Assembly: GCA_963772455.1 (NCBI GenBank) | Contig: CAVYXJ010000021.1 | Location: 9,110 to 73,109, forward strand | Length of the DNA stretch: 64,000 bases | Direction of reading: 5' to 3' | Origin: Candidatus Bathyarchaeota archaeon | GTDB taxonomy: Archaea; Thermoproteota; Bathyarchaeia; Bathyarchaeales; Bathycorpusculaceae | In this document: positions 1 through 39,400 of the stretch, one piece after another | Layout of the letters: each line of letters opens with the position of its first letter | Numbering within the stretch: position 1 is the first letter of the stretch | Notes under the pieces: generated by a model | The model's input: the letters and a program-made list of their open reading frames with translations, nothing else | What the model was told of the DNA's origin: nothing | The model's database searches: none | Translations under genes and position numbers: made by a program

Positions 1-1867
1 TATAGGTGTCTGAGAAATTATAGCTCCATAGGTGTGCTCCAGTTTTGGCGTTGAATGCGTTGATTACGCCGCCCATGCCTGCTGTGTAGAGATTACCGTA
101 TTTGATGACTGCTGCGCCCCACGGATTCATGTAGAGGTCAGTGAAAACGTTTAGCCATGGGTCTGCGGGAGTTGTTGGGCCCCAGATTTGTTCGCCAGTT
201 GAAATCTTAAAGCCATAATGTACTCTAAGTTCTTTTACGCTTACAACGAAAACGTCGTCTGCTGCACTGAAAGGTTCTGATCCTGGAATGTCTACATGTA
301 CATCTGCAACTGGAAGAGTCCATGTTCTGTTCCAAAGTAGTCTTCCTTCCTGTCCTGGTTTAATGCTGACTGCCCAGAAGACTGGTGTTGGTTGTGCTGC
401 GCCGCCTGCCCAGTTTGTGTTGCTTCCAATTATTACATCGTTGCCTACAACGGTTTGTATGTTGCTTGTAAGTGCTCCTGTTCCCACGGTATCAACTGGT
501 AACCCAAGAGGTATCGAAACGTTCCAGTCATAGCCTTTTGCTGCATCAAAGATGTTGCCGTATGGTCTCCAGCGTCCTGCATAATATTCGGCTAAGCTTT
601 TATCATCCACTAATCCGCCGCCTGGTTGTCCTGCAACGCCTGGACGAGATGCATAGAAGTCACGGTATGTCTTGTAGACAACACTTGTGGAGTTCCACAT
701 TGTCATCCAACCGGCTTTGTTTTGCATGGTGTAGATTAGAATTTCGCCGTTAGGTCCAATAGTTCGATAGCCAGATGGCATGCCTTGGATAACGTAGTCA
801 AGACGTCCTGTGAATGGGTCATAAGCTTTCCAGTCAGTTCTCAGAACAGTTTGTGTTGCTTGGTTGTAGACAGTGACTGTTGTCCAAAGTTCTGCAAATG
901 CACCGTACATGTTCATGGTCTTCCAATAGAATATGTTAGCAAAACCTAGTCGTTCGTTGTTGCCTAATGGTTGTTTCCAGAGTTCTTTGCCTGTGTGTAG
1001 ATCTACTGCAACGACTTTGTTTTGAGCTTCAAGGCCAGTGTAGTTCCATGTTGTTCCTGGGTACATCATTGCGGTTTGAACGGGTTGCTCATTGTAGTAG
1101 AGTATACCGTTAAGTACCAGAGCTCCACTGAATTTGCCTTCGTATGCATCGCCGTGTTCATAGCTGATTTGATCCATGTTTATGGCGTTAATATCTACTC
1201 CGCCAACAAGGCCTCCCTCAGCTAGTTGCTTAGCCCAAAGTAAGTGTGCTGTTTCGGGTGCGTCATTATTGTCTGGTGGAAGTCTGTTTTCATATCCAAG
1301 AACACCCAGCCAGTTACCAGCAATAGATTGCCATTCTCTAAATTGTGCATTTATCGGTCTTGACCAGTATTCTGTTGGGAGTGGGACACCTGGATAGTAA
1401 GCTCTAGGCTCTTGAGTTACGACGAGTGCATATGGTTCGCTTTTGCTGGCTTTCATTGTTGTGTTAGCAAGTGTTCCTGCGGCTGTGTATTGGATTTTTT
1501 GCTCTGGGAAGTTAGCTGTGAGGTAGTATATGCCTTCTTGGTCTGGTACAAAGTTTATTCCTGTCATTCCTGTCGTGTCTGTTGTAACTGGTCCAAGAGT
1601 TACATTTTGACCGTCTGGTTTGGTAACTGTAACAGTCATTCCATACCAGCCTGGCTGTGGCCAGGAGGTTGCGTGGGTAAGGCCGACAGTAACTAGTGTT
1701 TGTTGTCCTACACCAACGGGGTTAGGTAATGCTCCAACTAATGGAAAAGTATTCTTAGAGACTCCTGCCTGCGCTTCAGCTGATGGTAGATTAAGTATAG
1801 GTATAGTCATGCTTAAAGAAAGAATTCCAACGAATATAACAGCTAATATTTTTTTGTTTAATTGCAT
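1..1867 (-). CDS. Secreted PQQ-like beta-propeller repeat protein, paralog 1 (3' end runs off window)
   Basis: Missing from ORF track. Manual translation MQLNKKILAVIFVGILSLS...PNPVGVGQ...PLPTEYWSRPI...AVDLHTGKELW shares motifs with the three other paralogs; N-terminal signal peptide. Confidence 0.85.
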   Translation of the reverse strand, partial: MQLNKKILAVIFVGILSLSMTIPILNLPSAEAQAGVSKNTFPLVGALPNPVGVGQQTLVTVGLTHATSWPQPGWYGMTVTVTKPDGQNVTLGPVTTDTTGMTGINFVPDQEGIYYLTANFPEQKIQYTAAGTLANTTMKASKSEPYALVVTQEPRAYYPGVPLPTEYWSRPINAQFREWQSIAGNWLGVLGYENRLPPDNNDAPETAHLLWAKQLAEGGLVGGVDINAINMDQISYEHGDAYEGKFSGALVLNGILYYNEQPVQTAMMYPGTTWNYTGLEAQNKVVAVDLHTGKELWKQPLGNNERLGFANIFYWKTMNMYGAFAELWTTVTVYNQATQTVLRTDWKAYDPFTGRLDYVIQGMPSGYRTIGPNGEILIYTMQNKAGWMTMWNSTSVVYKTYRDFYASRPGVAGQPGGGLVDDKSLAEYYAGRWRPYGNIFDAAKGYDWNVSIPLGLPVDTVGTGALTSNIQTVVGNDVIIGSNTNWAGGAAQPTPVFWAVSIKPGQEGRLLWNRTWTLPVADVHVDIPGSEPFSAADDVFVVSVKELRVHYGFKISTGEQIWGPTTPADPWLNVFTDLYMNPWGAAVIKYGNLYTAGMGGVINAFNAKTGAHLWSYNFSDTY

Positions 1868-1893
1868 TTTTTCCTTTCCTCATTTAATTTTAT

Positions 1894-1969
1894 GGAAGCG
1901 CTTAAGCTTCCGACGTGACTAGTCTCGAGTTTATTCATTAAGTAGTGTCAAAAATAAAAAAATATGACA
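1894..1969. promoter_or_regulatory. Divergent promoter region with inverted repeats (candidate TrmB operators)
   Basis: GGAAGC-N6-GCTTCC (1894-1911), near-palindrome CGTGACTAGTCTCG (1914-1927), TGTCA-N14-TGACA (1946-1969). Confidence 0.35.
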
Positions 1970-2000
1970 AGTATTAAATCTAAAAGATAACTTAATTATA

Positions 2001-2801
2001 ATGGGGCAGGATTTGAGCTTAGAAGAGTACCATTTGGAAACTTTAATCCAATTAGGATTAACACCAAATCAAAGTAGACTTTATTTAAGTTTACTATGCT
2101 TAGGTAAAGCTATTGGAAAGACTCTTTCCAGAGAAACCAATTTTGCTAGACAAGAAGTATATCGAATACTAGAGGAACTGCACGACCGCGGGCTAGTTGA
2201 AAAAATTTTAGCAAGACCAACAGAATACAGGGCAGTGAAAATTCAAGAAGCCATCTCCACACTAGTTTTAGAGAAAACAAAAGAACTTGAACGAACCAAG
2301 GAACGGATTCAAAGTCTAATAGATGAATATTCACCGACAGCTGGCACATTAACACAAAACGAATACAAGTTTTTGTTGATTCCTCCTAAAACATTGGTTC
2401 ACGAGACAAGGGAAAAAATGCTTGAAAAAGCCAAAACAAACGTGCAGTTAATCACAACAAAAAAAAGATTTCTTCAGGGCGTTTCTCATTTCTTTGAAGC
2501 ATACCAAAGTTTGTTGAAGAGAAATGTAGAAACTCAAATAATTGTCAACACCGCTGGAGAAACAAATAATCTCCAAAGTAGCAAACTCCAACTTCTCAAA
2601 AAGTACCCAAATTTTTCGCTAAGGACAATAACCCAATCTAAAGCAAACATCTTAATTTTAGACAAAAGTGAAGCAATAATTACTTTACACCCAAAATTAG
2701 ATTTGGGAGCATCACCTGTTTTATGGACAAACCACCCTGAATTCCTAATGATTTTTCAAGATTATTTTCAGGATCTTTGGAAAAAAACACCAAAGAGATA
2801 G
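2001..2801 (+). CDS. TrmB-family transcriptional regulator
   Basis: N-terminal wHTH (LGLTPNQSRLYLSL...RQEVYRILEELHDRGLVE...P..Y.A) plus C-terminal effector-binding domain. Confidence 0.85.
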   Translation: MGQDLSLEEYHLETLIQLGLTPNQSRLYLSLLCLGKAIGKTLSRETNFARQEVYRILEELHDRGLVEKILARPTEYRAVKIQEAISTLVLEKTKELERTKERIQSLIDEYSPTAGTLTQNEYKFLLIPPKTLVHETREKMLEKAKTNVQLITTKKRFLQGVSHFFEAYQSLLKRNVETQIIVNTAGETNNLQSSKLQLLKKYPNFSLRTITQSKANILILDKSEAIITLHPKLDLGASPVLWTNHPEFLMIFQDYFQDLWKKTPKR

Positions 2802-2975
2802 AACTTTTAAATGAAATAAGCTTGCTGAAGTTCTGGGACAGTTTTAAAGAGAGAAATTATTCAAATTCGCAATATTCTATACATTAATATTAACTTAAAT
2901 CCAAAAAACTTTTTGCTGGATTAATTTAAACAAAAAAAGAAAAAAGGAAAGATTGTTTTTGGTTTGGTTTGGTGC

Positions 2976-5753
2976 TTATTTCTTTCTAAGCATCATGAGC
3001 ACTAGTAAGACTAGTACTATGATGATTAAAACGAATATGCCTGCGATTGCTGGTACGAAGTACATGTCTGCTGCAGATTGAGGTGGTGTTTCTGTTGGTG
3101 CTGCTGTTGGATGTGCTGGATCAACTGCAAAGGCTGTCTCAGAATATGATGGCCAGTAGCCGTTTGAGCCATGGAAAGTTGCGATGACTGTGTATTTGCC
3201 TGCGATGTCTGGTGTCCATTGATAGCTGTACATTCCGCTTGCATCAGTTGTTGCACTGCCAATGTTGCGGTAGTTGCCATTTGCATCAACAACATCTAAG
3301 GTTACTTCAACACCTTTGAAGTTGGTTGGTAATGGTTTTTGTTGGTATACGTAAGCCATCCACTCTGTCATTGCTGAGTCAGCTGCGACTGGTAAGCCGT
3401 TGGGGAATCTTGCTGCTTGTTCTTTTTGATTTGAGCCTGATGAAATGTCTGCTACTGTGCCGGTAATGACTATTGATCCTCCTTGTTGGAAGCCTGTTGC
3501 TGCTGCGCTAACTTTTGTAACTGTTGGGCCTCTGCCGACTGTGTAGATTGAGTTGTCGTAGCTGTTGAACCATGTTGCGTAGCCGTCTGCAACTGCGAAG
3601 CTTTGGGTTGTGAATTCAGTTACGTATGAGGAAAGGGTCCAGATTTCTGCACCGGTGGTTGCATTGATTGCTCGTGTCACTGCTCCTTTGAAGATTGGCA
3701 TTTCAACTGTGTGTTCAGATGTTACTACATAAACAACGTCGTTGCCAATAGCGTTCACGAAGGTTGGGAAATTGCCTGGTACTTGGAAGCCACTGTTAGT
3801 GCTGTTGCCTACGCCGCCGTTGCCGTATGTCCAAAGTCTGTTACCGGTTGCTGTATCATAGCAATAGACTATGCCTGCATAAGCGCTGCTGTAGAGTTTG
3901 CCGTATGCGAATGTGTTTGCTAAGCTGCCTGAAGCTTGGCTGCCGTAGTAATCAAAGTCTGCTTGTGGTTCTGTTGTCCACAGTTTTGCTCCGTGTGTCC
4001 ATGCTGTAACCGACAAATCTTTGGGTTTCTCTAAGATCTTCAACGAAGACTCTGTTAACTGGATCAATGCCTGCAATTAGAACTGTTATGTTGTTTGCTG
4101 GTGGATCATAGTTTTTCGTCCAAAGGACTTGACCATTGTGATTCTGGTTTTAAGCTGATTGCGGTATATGTGTATGGAACGAAGCTTAGTTGACCCATGA
4201 AGGTTGCACCTTGTGATGGAAGTGTCCCATTTTCGACAATCATTATGTCATCGTTGATAACGCCGACGATTACTGGTGTTTGTGTGCTTGGGACTGTATT
4301 ACGCCATGCATTTGGAACGCTGAAGTCAAATTTGTTCTGTGGGTTGGTTGGATCATTGACGCTTCCGTTAACGATGTATGTGTTTGTGTAGAAGGCTGTG
4401 CTTGAAGGTGATGGTGGAACGGTCATAAGTGCCGCAGAGTTTATGGTTGCTGACGCGTTGATAATTGATGGTGAAAGTAAACTGCCGCCTGTGAATGGGT
4501 TGGTTCCGAAGTTCCAGAGTTTAGTTGAGTTCCATCTTGCTAAAACCCAGTTTGCTGGTTGTCCTGCAGCAGCTGTGTTCTGGAAAACGTATCTGAGTTG
4601 CTCACCGCTTGGACCAAGGACTGTTGCCCAACCTGTTGCTGTTGGAACACCGGTGACGTTGAAGAGAGCGTTGCCTGTTTCTGCGTCAAATAATCTGCCG
4701 AAGTTGGCTGTGGATAAGATAGCTGGGAAGACACCGTGTTGGTTAGGGTCTTCATGGTCCCAAATTAGGGCAAATGACATTTGTGGTAAGTCAGATCTTG
4801 ACCAGATTAGTTCACCTGTGCGTAAGTCAACGCATTTTAGTGGTCCAGCATTTGATCCTGTGAATGAGATTGGTTCGTTATAGTATATTTTGCCGTTAAT
4901 CACTATTGGGTTTTGGTATCTTTGGTTGTATGCAGATCCTTCAAAGTATGCGTTTCCCTGTATGTCAAAGTTGTTGCCTCCAACGATGCCGCCTGTTTGC
5001 ATCATTTTTGTCCACATAACGTGGCTAGTGAGTGGTCCGACTGCGTCTCCCGGATAGAACATTGCACCGTTACCGCCAGCGTTAAAGGATGCTGTGAAGC
5101 CTCCGTAACCTGGTTGACCAGTACCTAACCAGTTAGAGGATATTGTCCACCAACCTGGGTTTTCACCGTAGATTGGTCGTGTCCAATATTCTTCTGGTAG
5201 TGGGTAGCTATCTGGGTAGGTGAGGATTGGATCTTCTTGTACGGTCAGGGTTGTGGTTGCCATGCTGGGCAGGTATGTGTCGTTAATCATGGTTGTGACT
5301 GGGCTATGTGGGAAAGCGTTGATTGCTTGTCCTGGGAAATTAAAGGTTAAGGTGTAAGTTCCTACAATGGTTGGTGTGAATGAGTAGGCTTGTGAAGAGG
5401 TTGTGTCTTGGATAGTTTCGAATGTTTGTGTTGTGTTTACACCATTGGGATCTGTGATAGTTAGTTTGTAGTTGTGGAATCTGTAGTTGTTGTTTACTGC
5501 TGCATAATTGATTGTTCCTGTTGGTTCACCGGCAGGGTAGTAGCCGAAAACTCTGTTGAGCCACATGTAAATGAGTGTTGATTGACCTAGACCAATAGGG
5601 TTGGGCAAGGCAGTGATGTAAGCGTTTGTTGTTAACTCCTGTGCCGGTAGTATGTGCACTTGCTTTTGGCATGAATGATGTTGATGTTGCGATTGAGACT
5701 GCTAAAAGTACAGCAATCATAATAGCTAAAGTTTTATTTTTCGAAAATTGCAT
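2976..5753 (-). CDS. Secreted PQQ-like beta-propeller protein, paralog 2 (two frameshifts, probably sequencing errors)
   Basis: ORFs 5526-5753, 4106-5659 and 2976-4076 join into signal peptide + PNPIGLGQ/YPLPEEYWTRPI/WTYGNGG motifs + C-terminal TM anchor. Confidence 0.85.
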
Positions 5754-6002
5754 TTCTTTTATTCTCCTTATTTTTATAACTCATACACAAATGATAGGAG
5801 TATATTTAAGAATTACTGAAAAATCCTCAGTCAAATCACACAAAAACTCTTTTTTTCACCATTAAAAGCAACAAAATGAACCCAAAAGAGGCCTTACTTG
5901 GCTTTCAATTTTCCAGAAAACACTTTTTCTGCGATTGTCAATGAATAAGAGGTTTGCTAAAACTGACAACTCTCAGAAAAAAAGCTACTTCTTCTATACT
6001 AT

Positions 6003-28596: not shown

Positions 28597-28902
28597 TTAA
28601 ATTGTATACGAGTAGATTGATTTTTCTATCGATACGCAAGACCCATGCGTCTTCATAAAATCAAGAACTTCTGCATACTCGATAAGATATTGTTTGCCTT
28701 TTTCAGTAAGTTTAAGAGAGTTCTCTTCAATCAGTTCAAGCTCCGAAAGTTCTGTTACGTAATTTTTCAACCGGTCAAAAGGCACCCCCATTCGCACTTG
28801 AACCTGCGTCAATATTATTTTTTCAGTTTTAGATTGGTCATTAAGTATCATTAAAAGATCGCCATAAATTTTCATTTTATCCCTACGGGAAATTTTTTTC
28901 AT
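28597..28902 (-). CDS. Winged-helix regulator (HTH_45/DUF4364-like), coupled to the 7TM gene
   Basis: RRD..KIY.D.L...LTEKG; ATGA overlap with upstream stop; C-terminus probably frameshifted (true end KRMGLAYR). Confidence 0.8.
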   Translation of the reverse strand: MKKISRRDKMKIYGDLLMILNDQSKTEKIILTQVQVRMGVPFDRLKNYVTELSELELIEENSLKLTEKGKQYLIEYAEVLDFMKTHGSCVSIEKSIYSYTI

Positions 28903-29573
28903 TTAGACGACCTTTTTTTTGATTTGTTAAAGGTTTTATATGAAACTAAAAGAAAAATAGTCAAAGCCGCCAAACGGAGAATCAAAGCTCCATTAAACGC
29001 AAATATGCTTCCATCAATAGCCCAAATTAACAACGAATATTGACTAATTCCAAGCAAAATAAAACCGAATGGAATCCAAAGTGTCATGGGGTCTGGAATT
29101 TCTATATGGCTTCTAAGGGTATGAATTGAAATATAGATGAGACAAATTATATTAAAACTCCGAACGTACACTTGAGTAGCCTGATAACTATCCACAGCAA
29201 ATTGGGGAATAATAATTCCAGTTACAATTGCAGCTGCAAGACCAACAATTAACAAACTTAGTGTTATGTCCCATTTTGTTTGAGAATTTTCCAAACGTTT
29301 TCTTGAAAAGTAGTAAGTTACTACTAAGAAGCAATACGCAAAAGTGCGGGCAAAAAGTTGAAGGTATGCAAGCTGTCTAAAGGAAAAAATTATATCTGAA
29401 AATGCTATAGCCCCAAGAATGTATGATACTCCAAGAAAACCAAATCCAAGAGGAAGTCCAAGATATCGCCTTTCACCGGTTAGTCTATAGGGCTTTATCA
29501 TAAAACGTAAAAGAATAAAGCACAGAATTGCTGAAACTACTTCTACCAATATCCGAATAGTTGGATCATACAT
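28899..29573 (-). CDS. 7-TM membrane protein (putative receptor), paralog 1
   Basis: About seven hydrophobic helices; MIKPY..T.E.RYLGLPLGFGFLG, LLGISQYSL. Confidence 0.75.
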   Translation of the reverse strand: MYDPTIRILVEVVSAILCFILLRFMIKPYRLTGERRYLGLPLGFGFLGVSYILGAIAFSDIIFSFRQLAYLQLFARTFAYCFLVVTYYFSRKRLENSQTKWDITLSLLIVGLAAAIVTGIIIPQFAVDSYQATQVYVRSFNIICLIYISIHTLRSHIEIPDPMTLWIPFGFILLGISQYSLLIWAIDGSIFAFNGALILRLAALTIFLLVSYKTFNKSKKRSSK

Positions 29574-29896
29574 GCTGATATTCTATTGAGCTTCGTTTTC
29601 TATTATGTCTTTTCCAAAATTACCTTAGAATAATCCAATGTTATTTAGACAATATAACGCTGAAACAAAGCTATTGCAAGCGACTTTTATTATAATCCTC
29701 AACTTTTAAAACACCTCCCCTTTCAGATAATTATTTTTTAATTGATTTTTTTCAAGTGTGATTGTCAGAAAAATAATTATTGAAAAATCCTGTTCTAGCG
29801 AAGTTTGACATTTACTGCTTATAACATTTACTCTCTTATGGTGAGGGTGTCTTATTATTCAATTTGTTATTATCTTTATTCATAAAATAAAAGGAA

Positions 29897-32479
29897 ATGA
29901 AAAAAATGGATTTAACTACAATGAAAACTAAGAGAAAATTATTGTCAACGATAGCGATATTTATAATGCTGACTATGTCTGTTCCATTAACATTTCTGGC
30001 AACAACTAGTGCACACACCCCCGCATGGAACATACCTTCTTTTGCTTATCTCGCTGCACAACCAAGTCCTGTAGGAGTTGGACAGAGCGTACAGGTTTAC
30101 ATGTGGGTCGACGCACCCTTTCCATCAGCAGCTGAAGGCAATGATTATCGAAGGCACGACTACAAGCTTACGATCACAATGCCCGATGGAAGCACCGACG
30201 TAAAAACGTGGCCAATCATCTATGACACAACTGGAGTTCAATACTATGCATTTACACCAGACCAAGTAGGCACGTACACTTTACTATTTGAATATCCTAG
30301 CCAAGTATTCACTTGGAATGCAACAGCAGTACAAGCGTGGTATGGGGATACTTTCATGGCGGACAGCGCAACAACAACTGTCACAGTCCAACAAGAACCA
30401 TTGTCTGCGCCTGTACTAAGCTATCCATTACCTACTGAATACTGGACGAGACCCATAGAAGGACAGAACACTGACTGGTACAGCGTTTCCTCGAACTGGC
30501 TCAATTCACCATTCAACTGGGTCGGAGACAGCGGTACACAGGGCGCAGTGTCATCATGCGATACCCAAGGCGGCTACGGAAGACTTCAACCAGACGGCAT
30601 CGCACCAAACAGCCCACACATACTGTGGACTCGACCTATTCAGGACGGTGGAGTTGTTGGCGGCGATATCTATGAACTCTCAGGCGAAACATACTACATG
30701 GGCGGTTCCTATAACGTTAGATTCAGAGACGCCATAGTTATGTATGGACGGCTTTACTATGAAGAAGGCTGGGGCAATTCCGGCAGTGGCGGCGACTTCA
30801 TTTGTGTTGATGTACGAACTGGACAAGAGCTATGGAGACTTAATGCTACAGTCATCTCACAAATTGGAAAACCAGTTACAGGCTATGTCTACTGTTATGA
30901 CATGATGAACCAACACGGCGTTATACCTAACGGTTTGCTGTTCACACAAAACTTTGCAAGAGCAGTTGATCCTATGACAGGAAGAGTCTTAGCTCTCAAC
31001 ATAACTAACGTTCCCACCGGCATAGCAGCCCCTGGATTACAAGGCGAAGTCCTGAGATACGTATACACCTCTTCAAGCAAAACTTTAGGTCAATGGAACT
31101 CATCTAAAGTATTTGTAACCGAAGTCTCAGGAACCATAAATGCAAGCACAACAGCACGATATGACTGGATCAAGACATTGTCAATCGGACCAGGCACATG
31201 GACACTCAACAGACACCTCATACCCGGCAATCTACTGCTTATGACGCAAGGAAGCTTCGGTGGCCCCAGAGACCCACAACCAGGAATGAACGTAACAGCA
31301 GTTAGCATAAAGCCAGAAACAGCAGGCCAAATCTTGTGGACCAAATATTTGCCTGTTGCGCCAGACAACGTAACCAGAAAAATCATAGGAATCGACGAAG
31401 AAGCCGGCGTATTCATCACTCAAGATAAAGAAACCTTAACTCTCTGCGGTTTCAGCCTCACCAATGGCAATCAAGTGTGGACAGTTACACCTGACGATGC
31501 AAAATGGGACACAATGCGAAGCACCTCAATAGTCGCCTATGGCAATCTCTATGTATCAGGCTTTGACGGCATACTACACTGCTATGACATGGCAAATGGC
31601 GATCTACTTTGGACCTATGGCAACGGCGGACCAGGTAACACAACCTATTCTGGTCTTGAAACAGCTTGGGGTCATTACCCAATCTTCGTTGACAACGTTG
31701 CTGATGGAAAACTCTACTTAGGCACAACAGAACATTCACCTGACTCACCATTCTACAAAGGCACACAGTTCCGCTGCATCAACGCTACAACCGGTGAAGA
31801 AATCTGGACCATGATGGGCTGGGGTACAGGTATGTACGTAGGTCAAAGCGACATAATTGCTGAAGGATGCTTCATCTACCTCAACTGCTACGACATGCAA
31901 ATATATTCTGTTGGCAAGGGTCCAAGTTCAATGACAGTTGAAGCACCTAAAGCCGCAATTGAATTAGGCAAATCACTGGTTATCAGCGGCACAGTTACTG
32001 ACATCTCAGCAGGCACAAATCAAAAAGAGCAAGCTGCAAGATTTCCACAAGGAGTTCCAGCAGTTTCAGATGCAAGCCAAAGTGCATGGATGGAATACAT
32101 CTACATGCAAAAACCACGACCAACAGACACAACCGGCGTACCAGTTACATTGAGTGTTGTTGACGCTAATGGCAACTACAGAGACATCGGAACAACCACA
32201 AGCGACGCAGACGGATTCTTTGCATTCAACTGGAAACCAGACATAGAAGGACAATACACCGTCTATGCATCATTCGGAGGTAGTGAATCTTATTGGCCTT
32301 CACATGCAGTAACAGCATTCGCAGTTGACCCAGCCGCAGCAACCCCAACACCATCTGCAACACCTCAAAGCGACATTGCAACAAATGCAAACCTAATGAC
32401 CGCCATGGCCGCCGGAGTAATCGCAATAATTATTGCAATAGCAATAGTCGGATTGCTCATACTTCGAAAACGACCATAA
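29897..32479 (+). CDS. Secreted PQQ-like beta-propeller protein, paralog 3 (intact, 860 aa)
   Basis: Signal peptide + AHTP, PSPVGVGQ, YPLPTEYWTRPI, repeated D..TG..LW, C-terminal TM + RKRP. Confidence 0.9.
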   Translation: MKKMDLTTMKTKRKLLSTIAIFIMLTMSVPLTFLATTSAHTPAWNIPSFAYLAAQPSPVGVGQSVQVYMWVDAPFPSAAEGNDYRRHDYKLTITMPDGSTDVKTWPIIYDTTGVQYYAFTPDQVGTYTLLFEYPSQVFTWNATAVQAWYGDTFMADSATTTVTVQQEPLSAPVLSYPLPTEYWTRPIEGQNTDWYSVSSNWLNSPFNWVGDSGTQGAVSSCDTQGGYGRLQPDGIAPNSPHILWTRPIQDGGVVGGDIYELSGETYYMGGSYNVRFRDAIVMYGRLYYEEGWGNSGSGGDFICVDVRTGQELWRLNATVISQIGKPVTGYVYCYDMMNQHGVIPNGLLFTQNFARAVDPMTGRVLALNITNVPTGIAAPGLQGEVLRYVYTSSSKTLGQWNSSKVFVTEVSGTINASTTARYDWIKTLSIGPGTWTLNRHLIPGNLLLMTQGSFGGPRDPQPGMNVTAVSIKPETAGQILWTKYLPVAPDNVTRKIIGIDEEAGVFITQDKETLTLCGFSLTNGNQVWTVTPDDAKWDTMRSTSIVAYGNLYVSGFDGILHCYDMANGDLLWTYGNGGPGNTTYSGLETAWGHYPIFVDNVADGKLYLGTTEHSPDSPFYKGTQFRCINATTGEEIWTMMGWGTGMYVGQSDIIAEGCFIYLNCYDMQIYSVGKGPSSMTVEAPKAAIELGKSLVISGTVTDISAGTNQKEQAARFPQGVPAVSDASQSAWMEYIYMQKPRPTDTTGVPVTLSVVDANGNYRDIGTTTSDADGFFAFNWKPDIEGQYTVYASFGGSESYWPSHAVTAFAVDPAAATPTPSATPQSDIATNANLMTAMAAGVIAIIIAIAIVGLLILRKRP

Positions 32480-32497
32480 AACGCTAAAACCAAAAAT

Positions 32498-32514
32498 CAT
32501 CTTTCCCCTTTTTT
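32498..32514 (+). terminator. Oligo-pyrimidine terminator
   Basis: ATCTTTCCCCTTTTTT, identical to that after paralog 4. Confidence 0.6.
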
Positions 32515-32569
32515 AGTCCATAGAAAAATAATTGGAATAAAGAAAGAGAGGCATGGAGTTGATTAGATT

Positions 32570-32878
32570 ATGGAAAAACTCGTGATAAAGCCATCTTTAG
32601 AAAAGTCAAACAAAACAGAGGTTATAAAGGCAGTATTGCAAGAAGCAATTCCGACTCTAGAGACCCCTTGTTTAAAAAAATTTAAGCCCAGAGCAATCAT
32701 TTTAAAAGCTAACGATAAAGATTTTTCTAAAATCAAAGACTTAATTAAAACGCAGTTTCCCCAAGTTGAAATAGTCTACGTTACTACCGGTCCAGTTGAG
32801 AGTTTTCTCCGAGTCACCAAATCAATACCTTTTGAAATGCAGAACTCCTGTGAACAGACAAATTACACTATTGAGTAG
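32570..32878 (+). CDS. Hypothetical protein
   Basis: 102-aa ORF with GGAG upstream. Confidence 0.55.
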   Translation: MEKLVIKPSLEKSNKTEVIKAVLQEAIPTLETPCLKKFKPRAIILKANDKDFSKIKDLIKTQFPQVEIVYVTTGPVESFLRVTKSIPFEMQNSCEQTNYTIE

Positions 32879-33029
32879 GTGAAGGTTAATTTGTAGAATT
32901 GACGGCCGCGAAGAGGCAAACAATCTAAAAAAATAATTTTTTGTCTTGAAAAAATTAAAGATTGCAGAGAAGAAATGGGTTGTGTGGGATTAGGTTATAA
33001 TATCCTGACAAAGAAGTCACAAGGTGTAT

Positions 33030-33168
33030 GCATTTGCTTTTTCTCTTAAATTTGGTATCAGCACTTAATCTAATCCTTATAGACTATCTTTTCACTCCTC
33101 GTTCATTGTAGGTAAAAAAAATTAGCTATAGATTTATTCTGTCTCTACGTGTGATTTCTTTTATTCAA
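33030..33168 (-). pseudogene. Relic of the winged-helix gene downstream of 7TM paralog 2
   Basis: TTGA overlap with 7TM stop; KEITRRDR/IY...EKIV aligns to KKISRRDK/KIY...EKII of 28597-28902; multiple stops and indels. Confidence 0.6.
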
Positions 33169-33857
33169 TCTATTTTTTGGGTTATCAGAGTATTCTTTTT
33201 GTAAAAGGACCTATAGGCGATGATTAGAAATATAGCCAGGCCAGCCCAACGAATTACTAAGGCTCCCCACCATGCCGACATGCTATTGTCGCTTGCATAA
33301 ATGATCAGCGAGTATTGACTTATCCCAAGAAGTAGGTAACCAAAGGGACTCCATAATGTATCTGAATCTGGCGTTTCTAAATGACTCCTAAACGTGTGCG
33401 CAAAGAGATAAACAATGCAAATAAGATTGAAGACTCTGGTAATGCCGCTTATAAGTTGATAACTAGGTAATCCAACACTAGGAATACTGATGAGAATAGC
33501 CGAAGTTGTCAAGACGATGATTAATAAAATTAGAGTATAATTCCAGAGATGTCTACTATTTTCTTTGTTTTTCCTTGAAAAATAATATGTCATGCACAGA
33601 AAGATAAATGCGAAAGATCTTACAACGGCTTGAAGATATATTGTTCCATTGCCAAAAGCATATGGTTGGAAATATATGAAAGCTGATAAAGCGTAGGTTG
33701 CTCCAAGAAATCCAAAACCGAGAGGCAGTCCAAGGTATCTATTTTCTTTAGTAATCTGGTATGGTTTGATCATGAATCTTAGAAGAATTAGGCAAATGAT
33801 AGCTGATGTAGTTTCATAGACAACTCGGAAGGTTTGATAAGCGTAGGGGTCAACGAT
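33165..33857 (-). CDS. 7-TM membrane protein (putative receptor), paralog 2
   Basis: Clear paralog of 28899-29573; frame stays open 28 codons upstream of ATG 33773 (VDPYAYQTFRVVYETTSAIICLILLRF) behind a GGTGA SD. Confidence 0.75.
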   Translation of the reverse strand: MVDPYAYQTFRVVYETTSAIICLILLRFMIKPYQITKENRYLGLPLGFGFLGATYALSAFIYFQPYAFGNGTIYLQAVVRSFAFIFLCMTYYFSRKNKENSRHLWNYTLILLIIVLTTSAILISIPSVGLPSYQLISGITRVFNLICIVYLFAHTFRSHLETPDSDTLWSPFGYLLLGISQYSLIIYASDNSMSAWWGALVIRWAGLAIFLIIAYRSFYKKNTLITQKID

Positions 33858-33925
33858 GATAATTCACCATCAAGTTTTTGTGCCTTTTTTTACACTCTGT
33901 AATATTTGTCCTTAATATTTTACGC

Positions 33926-33940
33926 TCACGATACGTGAGT
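33926..33940. promoter_or_regulatory. Inverted repeat in the 7TM/beta-propeller divergent promoter
   Basis: CTCACG-ATA-CGTGAG. Confidence 0.4.
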
Positions 33941-33998
33941 TCGTCTTATTAGTCCATTCCCAAGAGTAAGCTGTATAAAATTTAGAGGAAAAGAAAAA

Positions 33999-36636
33999 AT
34001 GAAACTTAATACAAACAAAAAAACTATGACTTTTGTAATCACTTCCATTCTACTACTAACTATCACTGCACAGATGCTACTATTACCCCCTACTAATGCT
34101 CATACACCTAAATGGACTATCCCATCTTTTAGCTATGTAAGCGTAGCTCCATCTCCAGTCGGTGTCGGCCAGACAGTGCAAATTTACATGTGGGTCGATA
34201 CACCTCTGCCTGGCGCCGTAATAACGAATGACATTAGACGACATGGCTACACATTAACAATAACCAAACCAGACGGAAACACTGTTACCCAAAACTGGGA
34301 TTTAATCGATGACACAACGGGTGTTCAATTCTTCTCGTATACTCCAGATCAAATCGGAACCTACGCAATACTGTTCAACTACACTGGTCAAACCTATACT
34401 TGGAGCGGCGACTATCAAAATGACTGCTTTCGGACCAGCAAGTGCAACAACAACCTTAACAGTGCAACAAGATCCATTACCAATACCTATTGATACCTAT
34501 CCATTGCCAACAGAGTATTGGGCACGTCCAATAGAAGGACAAAATACAGTTTGGTACACTATTGCATCGAACTGGTTAAATGCCCCTTACATTCGTACAG
34601 GTGCAACTTCCACTGGTGGCGCAGGCTGGGGTAGATACCAACCTAACGGCATTGGACCTGAAAGCTCTCACGTCATGTGGACAAAATCAATCCAATACGG
34701 CGGAGTTGTTGGAGGCAATAACACAGCTGTCTCAGGCGAAACCTACTACATGGGTGGCTCATACCAAGTTAGATTCAGCAACGCCATCGTTATGCAAGGA
34801 ACACTATTCTATCAAGAGCCATACGGCAACTCTGGCGGCGGAGGAGATATCGTTGCAGTCGACTTAACAACTGGACAAGAACTTTGGCGCGTAAATTCAA
34901 CAAGAACAGGCACATCCATAGTTCCAACACTAGGCTACCTTTATTCCTTCGAATCAGGCAACCAACACGGAGTCTTACCAAACGGTTTACTCATTGCACC
35001 AGTCACTGTAACTGGTCAAGGAACAGTTTGGCGAACATATGACCCAAGAACAGGCGTATTGACCTCAATGAACATCACAAACGTTCCATCAGGCTCAGCA
35101 GCAGGAAACCTGTCTCCATCATCAGGATCGTCAGCTTCAATCGGTGGTCCATTAGGCGAATACCTCATCTACACATTGACTAACCTTGGAACAACAACCA
35201 ACATCAAATATTACCTATCTCAGTGGAACTCTTCTAAGGTAATCGGTAACAACTTCAGTAACGGTGTGGGAACATGGTACTCAGGAAATGCAAATGCAAG
35301 TGCAACATCGGCATACGACTGGAACGTGTCAATTCCCTCGCTTAAAGGACAATGGAGCGTCTTCAGAGATGTTTTGTATAACGATAGGTTGCTGTTGCTT
35401 CAGGGCAGCTTCGGAACAGGTCCAAGAGACAATGGTGAAGGAGTTAACGTTACTGCAATCAGCCTTAACCCAGCAACAAGAGGACAGGTACTATGGGCCA
35501 AATACTATGCACCAGCACCCAACAACGTAACTAGAGCATTAGTAGCAGTCGATGGAATAGCTGGAACATTTGTCACTGAAGACAAAGAGACTTTAGAAAT
35601 TAATGGTTATAGCTTAGCTGACGGCAACCACTTATGGACAACCGGACCAGTTGTAACTGAATGGGATACTCTAAGAAGAGATACACTAAGTGCATACGGC
35701 AGGCTATACGCTTCGGGCTATGACGGAATACTCTATTGCTATGATGACAAAACTGGCGAATTGCTATGGACATACGGTAACGGCGGAGTAGGCAACAGCA
35801 CCTATGAAGGTCTCGGAACAGCATACGGTCACATGCCAATTTTCGTTGACGTAATTGCTGACGGCAAAGTATACCTTGGAACAACAGAGCACTCACCTAA
35901 CTCACCATTCTACAAGGACGTACAATATCGCTGCGTAAACGCCACAGATGGAACAGAAATCTGGACACTGACAGGTTGGGGCACAGGCATGTACGTCGGC
36001 GCTAACGACATTGTTGCAGACGGATACTTTGTCTACCTCAACTGCTATGACATGCAAATATACTCTGTTGGCAAAGGACCAAGCCAAATGACAGTATACA
36101 GCTCCTGACGTATCAGTTGCATTAGGTTCATCAATCTCAATCAAAGGCACTATCACAGACATTTCTGCAGGTACACAACAACAACAACAAGCTGCAAGAT
36201 TCCCCAATGGAGTTGCTGCAGTCTCTGACGCAAGCCAAAAACTATGGATGGAATACGTCTACATGCAAAAGCCACGACCAACCGACGCAACAGGTGTACC
36301 AGTTACATTAAGCGTTGTCGATGCTAACGGTAACTACAGAGAAATCGGAACAACCACAAGTGACGCAGATGGATTCTTCAGTTTGAACTGGAAACCAGAC
36401 ATCGAAGGACAATACACAGTCTATGCATCATTCGGCAGGCTCTGCATCATACTGGCCATCACATGCAGTCACATCTTTTGCAGTTGATCCAGCAGCATCC
36501 AACAGCAGCACCAACAGCAGCACCACCACAATCAACAGCTGACATGTACTTTGTACCAGCAATCGCAGGTTTATTCGTCTTAATCATCATAGTACTAGTC
36601 TTGCTAGTGCTCATGATGCTTAGAAAACGGGCATAA
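33999..36636 (+). CDS. Secreted PQQ-like beta-propeller protein, paralog 4 (frameshifted, probably sequencing errors)
   Basis: ORFs 33999-34493, 34309-36108 and 36248-36487 plus tail DMYFVPAIAGLFVLIIIVLVLLVLMMLRKRA*. Confidence 0.85.
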
Positions 36637-36656
36637 ACATACAAACAAACACAACT

Positions 36657-36672
36657 ATCTTTCCCCTTTTTT
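36657..36672 (+). terminator. Oligo-pyrimidine terminator
   Basis: ATCTTTCCCCTTTTTT. Confidence 0.6.
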
Positions 36673-36684
36673 AGTCTTTAAAAA

Positions 36685-36812
36685 TGAATTGAGAAAAAAT
36701 GGGGCTGAGTAGGCTCTGATTAAAGTTTACGACAGTAGCCATAGTGTCGTTGAGCGTTTGCATTCGCTCCTTTCCCTAATGATCCAGAGCCTCAGCAAAC
36801 CCTTTCAATTCA
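36685..36812. ncRNA. Candidate structured RNA with bulge-helix-bulge and multi-branch core
   Basis: Nested complementary segments read by eye (see finding); strand uncertain. Confidence 0.5.
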
Positions 36813-37399: not shown

Positions 37400-38305
37400 A
37401 TGAACGGCTTTTCATTGGTTTTACTTGGCGTTGTTTTATTTGTAGTTGGTTATGCTTTATGGAAAATTCAAGGAAAATTAAAAGAAGTAACCTTAGCTGT
37501 CGATTCTGGCTTTAAAACAATTGAAGATGGAATCACCCAAAACCTACTAGGGGCAAATGGAGCGCTCACAAAAGCAACAATCGCAGTCGACCAAAATTAC
37601 GCCACCATCAACAATGGAATCAACAACAATATTTTTGGACCAACCGGGTTGTTGAGCAAGAGTCGATATATCATGAATTACGCCAATTCTATTTGTATAA
37701 ATGTAGGCAATGACATCTACGCTGGAAAACTAATACTACAAAATGACATTCGAAAAACAACAGGTGACATCGAAATTATACTTGATGACACTGGCAAACC
37801 CTTAATTGATGTTGGAAAATGGCTATACAAAGTAGGCGATGACATCGACATCGATATTGCAGGAGCTCATCCATTTGCAGGTTTGGCAAAACCATTCCAT
37901 GACACCGGAAACACAACTAAGAACATAGGTGGTTTGTGCTTATCAGCTGAAAATAAACTCAAGTCAGCAGATTTAAAAATAATGCAAGCTGAAACCTCGC
38001 TAGAGGATATTTCATTAAAAGTTAAAGCTTTAGGACCAGAAATTATTCATGTTAGAGACTACATTGATTCTTCTTTCACTAACGGAATCAACGCTTCGCT
38101 AAATAATCTAAAACAAGTGACAGATAACGTCAAGATTCTTTTCTCTACTTTGGAAAATGGTGCTCAAACTTCAGTTAATAATTTAAAAACTGCAAATAGC
38201 TATCTGGATTCGTTATTAAACAACATCTTTCAAAAACAATTGATAGTTGGTTTGTTTTCTGCTGGGATTATTCTTATCTTGACTGGTGTAGCAATTGGTC
38301 TTTAA
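37400..38305 (+). CDS. Hypothetical protein, TM - long helical hairpin - TM
   Basis: Terminal TM helices enclosing amphipathic Asn/Gly/Ile-rich helices. Confidence 0.6.
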   Translation: MNGFSLVLLGVVLFVVGYALWKIQGKLKEVTLAVDSGFKTIEDGITQNLLGANGALTKATIAVDQNYATINNGINNNIFGPTGLLSKSRYIMNYANSICINVGNDIYAGKLILQNDIRKTTGDIEIILDDTGKPLIDVGKWLYKVGDDIDIDIAGAHPFAGLAKPFHDTGNTTKNIGGLCLSAENKLKSADLKIMQAETSLEDISLKVKALGPEIIHVRDYIDSSFTNGINASLNNLKQVTDNVKILFSTLENGAQTSVNNLKTANSYLDSLLNNIFQKQLIVGLFSAGIILILTGVAIGL

Positions 38306-38560: not shown

Positions 38561-39133
38561 TTAGGTCATTACTGGCGGTGGTGGTGGCGGCACTTGATAT
38601 TGTGTAGAAGTTGAGTTTGTTGGAATTTGGAAGAATGCTACGAGTATAAGTATCCAAGCTATGAAGATCAAGAATAAACCAACAATGAATATTGTCAGAA
38701 TCGCGCCGATAAGCAACAGTAAACCCCCCGTCCTGAATAGCCCAACTCCTGATTTGGTTGCAAGAGAATTAAATGCTCTTCGAATATAGATAGCTTCGAG
38801 CAAATAGAAAACAAATGCAATGCCAAGAAATAGGATAAGCCCTCCTATGAGTCCTATTATGCCTGCTGCATCGCCTACCCCCAAAGCTGTAGTAGTAAAT
38901 ATTCCGCCGAAAAACAACGATACAAGAGCCAATCCAGAACCGATTATGCCAATGATCCCAAAGATTACTGCATAGAGTGTGTTCTTCCATATGCTTTCGT
39001 CATTGTACGCCTGTGACAAGTTCTTCATGCCTATGAGAACCATTATTATGCCAACGATGCTCAGAAATGGAACTGGTATTACTAAAAATATTGAACCAAT
39101 GCCAGCTAAATTTTTTCCTGATTCTAAAGTCAT
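38561..39133 (-). CDS. DUF996-family membrane protein
   Basis: LAGIGSI...LSIVG...LF.TGG..L.IGA.L.I; poly-Pro tail; ATG 39133 has GAGG SD. Confidence 0.85.
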   Translation of the reverse strand: MTLESGKNLAGIGSIFLVIPVPFLSIVGIIMVLIGMKNLSQAYNDESIWKNTLYAVIFGIIGIIGSGLALVSLFFGGIFTTTALGVGDAAGIIGLIGGLILFLGIAFVFYLLEAIYIRRAFNSLATKSGVGLFRTGGLLLLIGAILTIFIVGLFLIFIAWILILVAFFQIPTNSTSTQYQVPPPPPPVMT

Positions 39134-39400
39134 TCCATAACCTCTGGGTTTTATTTTATTTTGAATTGCATAAAAGCTTTGCCACCGTGTAACATTGATA
39201 GCAAAAGAATGAAGCAATCTAAAGAACATGTTAGAGCACAAGCAAGTCAAGTAGAAGCGAACTAATTTATGAGATCTCCCTCAGCTAAGTGAGTCACTCC
39301 GACTTACACTCTTAGCCAACGTTCTGATTTATTTTAGATAATTATAAATACGAACAAACAAGTTATTGAAAGCAAGCTTACATTCTGAGAGCACTTACGC

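Follow-up and report, generated by a model that had tools for sequence, protein, structure and literature searches.

A seven-helix membrane protein and its coupled winged-helix partner as a candidate regulatory pair beside secreted propeller genes in Bathyarchaeia

Two small neighbouring genes in a 64,000-nucleotide stretch of Bathyarchaeia DNA (the window, G000:C21:9110-73109) may well encode a signalling pair that works without a kinase. One gene encodes a stand-alone membrane protein of seven transmembrane helices (7TM), the other a small winged helix-turn-helix protein (wHTH), and beside them lies a gene for a secreted PQQ-like beta-propeller protein. The reading favoured here, at a probability of roughly 0.55, is that the 7TM is the sensor and the wHTH the regulator, and that together they control secreted propellers by way of a palindrome, CTCAC-N5-GTGAG. 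The source genome measures 2.45 Mb in 24 contigs and is 92% complete; nearly all relatives of the window carry the label Bathyarchaeota or Bathyarchaeia.

The first of two modules in the window consists of these genes:

28597-28902, minus strand: wHTH1, a small winged-helix protein of the HTH_45 family, Sso10a-like, 101 amino acids (aa) as called
28899-29573, minus strand: 7TM1, a 224-aa seven-helix membrane protein with no soluble domain
29897-32479, plus strand: propeller 1, an 860-aa secreted, membrane-anchored PQQ-like beta-propeller protein, divergent from 7TM1

The stop codon of 7TM1 overlaps the start of wHTH1 by 4 nt (ATGA), and a spacer of 323 nt separates 7TM1 from propeller 1. An earlier reading of this DNA, here called the original prediction, had described this layout, and coordinates and translation bear it out. 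The motifs it quoted (TYYFSRK, RSH.E.PD..TLW.PFG, LLGISQYSL and others) are real and conserved in an alignment of the 7TM paralogs. It was also right that the 7TM has no cytoplasmic enzyme domain: the protein is made of membrane helices, with no extra domain. No HisKA/HATPase kinase or receiver domain was found in the 7TM, the wHTH or the scanned flanking open reading frames (ORFs), so this is not a two-component system.

Propeller 1 scores 37.3 bits against PQQ_2 (PF13360), above the gathering cut-off of 27.6. By the hydrophobic segments of its translation it has a signal-like segment at the N-terminus and a transmembrane anchor at the C-terminus. Residues 743-809 give weak CarboxypepD_reg and immunoglobulin-like (Ig-like) matches, with the Ig-like domain C-terminal. 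The label PQQ-like should be read as a match to the repeat family only.

The pair was followed through 78 loci from species-representative genomes, 858 kb of DNA. With E<=1e-3 and a length band as limits, 898 homologs of the 7TM are found. The association counts below are descriptive, since related genomes do not count as independent cases. A wHTH gene lies directly behind the 7TM gene in 75 of the 76 loci whose flank is 300 nt or longer; in the only exception, L074, it sits behind a frameshifted 7TM. Distant 7TM homologs (profile E 1e-14 to 1e-37, n=10) keep the wHTH in nine of ten cases, and four of these nine pairs have a propeller downstream in the same direction. Still more distant pairs occur at L097 and L098. 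In families f1 and f5 all 15 genomes that bear a 7TM have a wHTH match at E<=3e-22, adjoining the 7TM where coordinates were compared, and the f1/f5 genomes that carry no 7TM have no wHTH match better than 5.8e-10. On these counts the 7TM and the wHTH are an almost obligate, translationally coupled pair.

This pair also adjoins a secreted propeller gene in most cases: a divergent propeller homolog lies within 700 nt in 60 of the 74 loci whose flank is 1500 nt or longer. Both linkages had been put forward from the window, and both held beyond it.

The palindrome emerged from the aligned spacers of close relatives. There are 95 exact sites in the 78 loci against about 0.4 expected, a figure scaled from shuffles of the 2.45-Mb genome (0-3 sites). 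All 95 sites lie in 5' regions: 43 separate a divergent propeller from a 7TM, 30 precede a propeller alone and 12 a 7TM alone. Another 8 come before other ORFs (120 aa or longer), and the last 2 are elsewhere. No site is found within the core of any matched propeller, 7TM or wHTH gene. The 300 nt upstream of the 7TM were scored at 73 loci: 45 have the palindrome exact, 14 with a single mismatch, 4 with two mismatches and 10 not at all.

The palindrome stands at a fixed distance from a TATA-like CTAATAAG. Many loci have another TATA-like box, AAAATATTA, at 3 nt on the opposite side, facing the 7TM. Measured from its edge, the palindrome is 3-6 nt away from the propeller's TATA-like box and, in most loci, also from that of the 7TM-wHTH operon. 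The window has two sites:

33925-33939: exact palindrome, the best position weight matrix (PWM) match of the genome, 27.5
29831-29845: palindrome with one mismatch, CTCTC-TTATG-GTGAG on the plus strand, PWM 17.0, the fourth best in the genome

The exact site belongs to the second module, taken up below. It is 5 nt from the TATA-like CTTATTAG (33945-33952), which starts 54 nt before the ATG of propeller 2 (33999). On the other strand a TATA-like AAAATATTAA, at about 33911-33920, faces 7TM2 across the same palindrome. The one-mismatch site lies 52 nt before the ATG of propeller 1. At a distance of 5 nt it is followed by the TATA-like CTTATTATT (29851-29859), which starts 46 nt before that ATG. 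L006, the closest relative, has an exact palindrome at the equivalent place.

In one genome per genus of the family, the pattern CTCACNTATNGTGAG is found in 4 of 61 genomes at 10 sites, and a reversed-pattern control gave 1 match. Three of the four genomes carry the pair and have their sites beside it (G000, G038 and G253). The fourth, G314, has five sites spaced as in the pair-bearing L036, from which we infer that the two are the same. The palindrome thus seems confined, among the genomes scanned, to genomes with the pair. Divergent subfamilies of the pair do not have it (0 of 10 loci).

A regulon spread over the whole source genome was considered and rejected, as there are only 2 exact sites and about 4 PWM matches above noise. 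At PWM >=12 the real genome gives 10 matches and a shuffled one 8, and those on contigs C7 and C13 are inside ORFs.

At L036 (5935-11583), where there is no propeller, five palindrome-TATA promoters crowd into 6 kb. Behind them come various small proteins, secreted or in the membrane, and two 7TM genes; in this clade the regulon has other targets. At L087-L090, from genomes of the same genus as the source, a divergent 7TM-wHTH subfamily has its propeller downstream in the same direction and no CTCAC palindrome. In three of the four propeller promoters of L087-L090, the only loci concerned, a GTTCATC box stands beside the TATA box, and this may be a different operator of the divergent subfamily.

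The wHTH is a recognisable DNA-binding type. wHTH1 belongs to Pfam HTH_45 (PF14947), with 32.1 bits against a gathering cut-off of 25.5, and matches NCBIfam Sso10a_fam at E 5e-7 and 29.6 bits, below the cut-off of 60. An AlphaFold2 (AF2) model of the L006 ortholog, with a predicted local distance difference test (pLDDT) of 90, contains three helices and a wing, plus a long C-terminal helix and, at the termini, short strands. Its best Foldseek matches are Sso10a (1r7j; TMq 0.74, root-mean-square deviation 2.0), Sso10a-2 (4hw0) and AF1382 (3ov8), and profile matches are 1r7j at E 0.009 and 2qvo at E 0.056. The copy in the window has an aberrant C-terminus: one extra base near 28645 makes its last 17 or so residues unrelated to the ...FMKRMGLxY end that is conserved in all relatives, and the orthologs have about 92 aa.

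Other Bathyarchaeia carry the same wHTH clade fused to a MEDS sensor domain (L093 1880-2851, L094 1362-2234 and L095 1820-2749). The wHTH profile matches these fusions at E of about 1e-13 to 1e-15, and MEDS scores 39.6 and 32.1 bits against a cut-off of 29.8. Such fusions show that the wHTH clade serves as the output of sensors.

Complex prediction was done with the intact 7TM-wHTH pair of L006 because the end of the window's wHTH is shifted. The median score is 0.45 (runs 0.44, 0.45 and 0.56), against 0.00 for the best of 3 controls; the runs share at least 63% of contacts, with a partner pLDDT of at least 69. The mark for a complex is reached by 58 of 80 solved complexes and 2 of 110 mismatched pairs, and scores of at most 0.60 within the marked set belong to 7 of the 80 solved complexes and to both mismatches. 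The direct contact supposed by the original prediction gets weak support from this, which we count as evidence neither way.

The AF2 model of 7TM1 has seven helices (pLDDT 92.5, predicted template modelling score 0.89). Lys and Arg are concentrated in loops 1-3 and the C-tail. By the positive-inside rule basic loops are cytoplasmic, which would give the protein an N-out, C-in topology. The half that is then predicted to be cytoplasmic has a mean conservation of 0.70 against 0.56 for the outer half (Mann-Whitney p 1e-6), and positions at least 90% identical number 29 of 112 there against 11 of 111 outside. In one 976-aa relative, PKD and further extracellular domains precede the 7TM in a fused chain, as in receptors.

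A Pfam scan of 7TM1 gave nothing at E<=0.1 except a sub-threshold match to TMEM175 (E 0.0087). A fold comparison had been proposed along with the original prediction; in Foldseek the top matches are all G-protein-coupled receptors (TMq 0.41-0.65), none reaching E<=1e-3, and they probably reflect a generic seven-helix bundle. A protein atlas gave unnamed clusters only, with HisKA_7TM at 0.81 as no more than a lead.

MASE3 (PF17159) was tried and rejected: against a gathering cut-off of 31 bits, 7TM2 scores 21.4, and 7TM1 has no match at E<=0.1. Pfam MASE3 is found in 9 of 24 members of the 7TM family at E<=1 (best 7e-6; a distant member scores 23.8 bits), and a precomputed PF17159 match is on 5 of the 120 7TM homologs listed. 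NCBIfam NF047874 matches the 7TM at E 5e-7 over residues 8-217, below the curated cut-off. An hhalign comparison with the genome's own MASE3 protein, a single sequence as template, gave a probability of 2.9%. A HMMER profile search of 1.8 billion representatives returned 143 matches (50% clustering), of which 142 are shorter than 300 aa. The long one has extracellular domains in front and no output domain behind, and the search found neither a 7TM serving as N-terminal module of a longer signalling protein nor a 7TM relative of kinase length.

In the reading that we favour, these parts make up a Bathyarchaeia-specific unit of two proteins, a stand-alone 7TM and a translationally coupled, Sso10a-like wHTH of about 92 aa. 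A dimer of the wHTH would most likely bind CTCAC-N5-GTGAG, the arms of which are 10 bp apart centre to centre, or one helical turn. The 7TM would supply the input, binding or releasing the wHTH at the membrane by its conserved cytoplasmic face. Because the palindrome stands beside the TATA-like boxes of both, the unit would control the surface propeller as well as its own operon. Archaeal regulators near the B recognition element (BRE) can recruit transcription factor B (TFB) or exclude it. With the edge of the palindrome at the BRE, the outcome here could be activation or repression, through TFB recruitment or exclusion. In the window, the single wHTH, that of module 1, would serve two sensors (7TM1 and the orphan 7TM2) and two propeller promoters.

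A more specific version is tentative and we would not lean on it: the 7TM would be a receptor that directly and reversibly captures the dimeric Sso10a-like factor at its conserved cytoplasmic face. Its variable outer loops would sense what state the secreted propeller enzymes are in, how loaded they are, or their substrate, and an extracellular enzyme set active on lignin or humic matter would be tuned via one palindromic operator. A co-receptor role of the propeller, which the original prediction thought possible, would be conjecture.

The signalling system without a kinase that the original prediction proposed has the pairing, the propeller link, the shared palindrome and the lack of a kinase on its side. 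Several points weigh against it. Binding of the wHTH to the palindrome is read from their co-location, and its contact with the 7TM is presumed. The predicted C-terminal strand of wHTH1 would be lost in this assembly, given its aberrant end. The 7TM is patchy, being present in 22 of 301 sampled Bathyarchaeia genomes and in 6 of 14 of the same genus. By the criterion used, 14 of the 74 loci have no adjacent propeller. Among these 14, a propeller is present in another arrangement in L005, L007, L015, L034 and L061, a different secreted or membrane-anchored protein is found in L036, L037 and L038, and the neighbours in L054, L072 and L078 are housekeeping genes.

The source genome holds roughly 25 propeller paralogs over 10 contigs and only some 4 motif-like sites, so most of the paralogs would be outside the control of the palindrome. 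The in/out split behind the conservation comparison is itself taken from the predicted topology and is not a measured one. Finally, many polar residues that the 7TM has in the membrane or close to it are invariant (E34, R36, R76, R138, R154, H156, Q178 and D187), which would also fit a transporter or an enzyme.

These residues lead to the most serious alternative, which we hold to be rather unlikely. In it the wHTH binds the palindrome as a common local regulator in need of no partner, and the 7TM is cargo of the operon that works with the secreted propeller, not a sensor acting on the wHTH. The 7TM could be a membrane partner, or serve export or maturation, uptake of a product or cofactor handling. 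Besides its invariant charged and polar residues, the 7TM has no soluble signalling domain, two of its homologs are named 'heme A synthase' by a source, and PQQ-domain proteins are hypothesised in the available text of PMC11697101 to take part in extracellular redox chemistry, for which membrane partners would be needed. However, the 7TM has a single conserved His, which speaks against a haem-binding bundle. Genomes hold 1-5 7TM genes but some 25 or more propellers, so the two are not stoichiometric partners. The 7TM also keeps to the wHTH (75/76) more than to the propeller (60/74), even where no propeller is near. The greater conservation of its cytoplasmic face and the receptor-like PKD-7TM fusion likewise speak for a sensor over cargo.

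The second module has the following genes:

33165-33860, minus strand: 7TM2, an orphan paralog with an open frame, 33165-33773 from the first ATG
33999-36636, plus strand: propeller 2, a paralog of propeller 1, split by four 1-base insertions

7TM2 is 53% identical to 7TM1. Its helix 1 is encoded in frame up to 33860 with no ATG, GTG or TTG, and the first ATG is at 33773. The original prediction had a second wHTH here, its start overlapping the 7TM2 stop in a TTGA. This gene does not exist: the TTGA-overlapping frame ends after 7 codons, no same-strand ORF of at least 25 aa follows the 7TM2 stop, and a tblastn search for the wHTH returns no match in 32880-33170 even at E<=10.

Propeller 2 is 52-80% identical to propeller 1 per aligned segment, and a fragment of it scores 46.8 bits against PQQ_2. 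Set against the intact 877-aa ortholog of L005, with 85.6% DNA identity, it has four frame changes from 1-base insertions at about 34426, 36098, 36434 and 36499. The three-gene module said to be duplicated is therefore complete in module 1, whereas its second copy lacks the wHTH, a start for 7TM helix 1 and an unbroken propeller frame. As each module has its own orthologs elsewhere, the two are old paralogs and not a recent tandem duplication.

One could take module 2, and perhaps wHTH1 too, for a decaying remnant, with 7TM2 and propeller 2 as pseudogenes and only module 1 of any importance. The missing wHTH2, the helix 1 without a canonical start, the four propeller 2 frameshifts and the shifted C-terminus of wHTH1 would all fit. 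We find this unlikely. The related genomes L004 and L005 share the missing wHTH and the missing start codon, so this state of 7TM2 is genuine. Across the three orthologs the ratio of non-synonymous to synonymous substitution rates (dN/dS) is 0.15-0.19 for 7TM2 and 0.11-0.16 for 7TM1. In the helix-1 region, counted by eye in an alignment of the three genomes, synonymous changes outnumber non-synonymous ones. 7TM2 is under purifying selection and thus a working orphan. Its promoter also has the best palindrome of the genome.

The helix-1 region is kept in all three genomes (window 33773-33860, L004 1685-1772, L005 4880-4967). Just upstream of it, in another frame, is a conserved ATGGTGAATT, one base out of register with respect to the intact L034. 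7TM2 could have a non-canonical start or a programmed frameshift.

The inserted bases are a separate matter. In Illumina-based contigs of related populations a base is absent at, or within 5 nt of, all four propeller 2 insertions, for the third in a minority of one run only. These runs come from related populations and not demonstrably from the window's strain, which limits what they say on the insertions; the uncovered parts (7TM and wHTH in run X1; the spacers) carry no information. The genome's only bona fide MASE3-PAS-histidine kinase gene (G000:C10:372799-376467, L091) is likewise split, into ORFs of 266, 200 and 296 aa. A propeller in the window, at about 2979-5760, is matched in several frames and is broken or mis-assembled. 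Taken with the extra bases of propeller 2 and wHTH1, these cases make indel errors of the assembly likely and suggest that they are frequent. The single-base insertions are doubtful and may be such errors, with decay as the other possible cause.

Sediment metatranscriptome contigs cover 29870-32335 and 33980-36700 and differ little from the window (in one case by 4 in 364 nt). These propeller contigs are consistent with expression in situ; DNA carry-over in the libraries is possible.

Other genes of the window touch on this less. A 301-aa membrane-anchored neighbour with a weak FapA-like match (37400-38305) and a DUF996 membrane protein (38561-39250, 95.6 bits) are not conserved with the module. 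At the start of the window (20-5760, minus strand) there are two further propeller paralogs.

Least probable of all, and to our minds improbable, is that the palindrome is not the site of the wHTH: its 5+5 inverted repeat core could fold as an RNA hairpin, and with the binder named from co-location alone it could be the site of another factor, for example a general promoter element of the gene family, but its spacer YTATC is not palindromic and yet as conserved as the arms, the TATA boxes on both sides put it upstream of the transcription starts, and the motif occurs only in genomes with the wHTH clade, beside the wHTH. Pairing in the flanks is also near what base frequencies predict (of 90, 43 observed against 46.6 expected, 34 against 33.6 and 29 against 23.3). 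There is no covariation of the flanks, and mismatches in one arm are mostly uncompensated, which argues for a protein site and not a hairpin.

The sensor-regulator pair favoured here resembles several known systems in part. The MASE3 module of histidine kinases (PF17159; NF047874) is a multi-helix membrane module of similar length with weak end-to-end similarity, but the 7TM is below every curated cut-off and has no kinase or output domain attached. Sso10a, Sso10a-2 and AF1382, all from archaea, are small winged-helix proteins whose C-terminal helix is long; HTH_45 and the structural matches link them to the wHTH. Sso10a is described as a chromatin protein. The wHTH clade of this locus differs in being always encoded behind a 7TM, in its conserved N- and C-terminal strands, which are predicted to pair, and in the specific palindrome associated with it. 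The HTH_45-MEDS regulators of L093-L095 use the same wHTH clade, but there a cytoplasmic MEDS sensor is fused in one chain, while here the presumed sensor is a separate membrane protein.

Transcription factors under membrane control are a known kind, and include BlaR1-BlaI and MecR1-MecI, Mlc-PtsG, the pairs of anti-sigma and ECF sigma factors, and the archaeal ArnR and ArnR1. ArnR has its helices and its helix-turn-helix (HTH) in one chain. The logic is shared: a membrane protein sets a small DNA-binding protein without a phosphorelay. The 7TM pair, by contrast, has no protease, transporter or anti-sigma domain, has no sequence relation to these systems, and has a partner of seven helices.

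On plasmid pHV3 of Haloferax volcanii an HTH_20 regulator is followed by a 103-aa DUF7521 membrane protein (bioRxiv 10.1101/2025.11.10.687552, in the accessible part of the preprint; NC_013964 223140-223824). As far as that part goes, the likeness is that a small wHTH gene abuts a small membrane-protein gene, and the differences are the HTH family, the gene order and the membrane protein, which has about 100 aa and is not a 7TM; the two are not the same family. DUF7521 was rejected for the 7TM: it matches the first helices of distant 7TM members weakly, at 20-26 bits against a cut-off of 27, and those of the window not at all. A tblastn search of a distant 7TM against plasmids found nothing. 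Which genes of the preprint stand at these coordinates is our guess from position and domain; we take them to be HVO_B0192/0193.

For the propellers there is a closer precedent. The available text of PMC11697101 describes an expanded set of extracellular PQQ-domain (pfam13360) proteins in Bathy-6, and these share with the present ones the Pfam domain, signal peptides, Ig-like domains and tens of copies per genome. Secreted propeller families with the PQQ domain are proposed there to act on lignin or humic matter. The words 'regulat', 'promoter', 'helix-turn-helix' and 'transcriptional regulator' do not occur in its main text (supplements were outside this check).

The original prediction knew of no description of such a system, and a literature search, with subscription journals and supplements beyond its reach, found none of this 7TM-wHTH pair. 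The combination of a 7TM, a separate Sso10a-like regulator and a palindrome did not turn up as previously described in the searchable literature.

Bathyarchaeia are abundant and largely uncultured, and to our knowledge almost nothing is known of their gene regulation. This locus is a concrete candidate for a regulatory circuit, with a regulator family, a 15-bp operator-like site and a candidate membrane sensor, and it can be tested in vitro without culture. If the 7TM directly controls the wHTH, this would be a compact signalling design that is undescribed for archaea in the literature searched. If the 7TM does capture the factor, it would be an archaeal pathway from receptor to promoter made of only two proteins.

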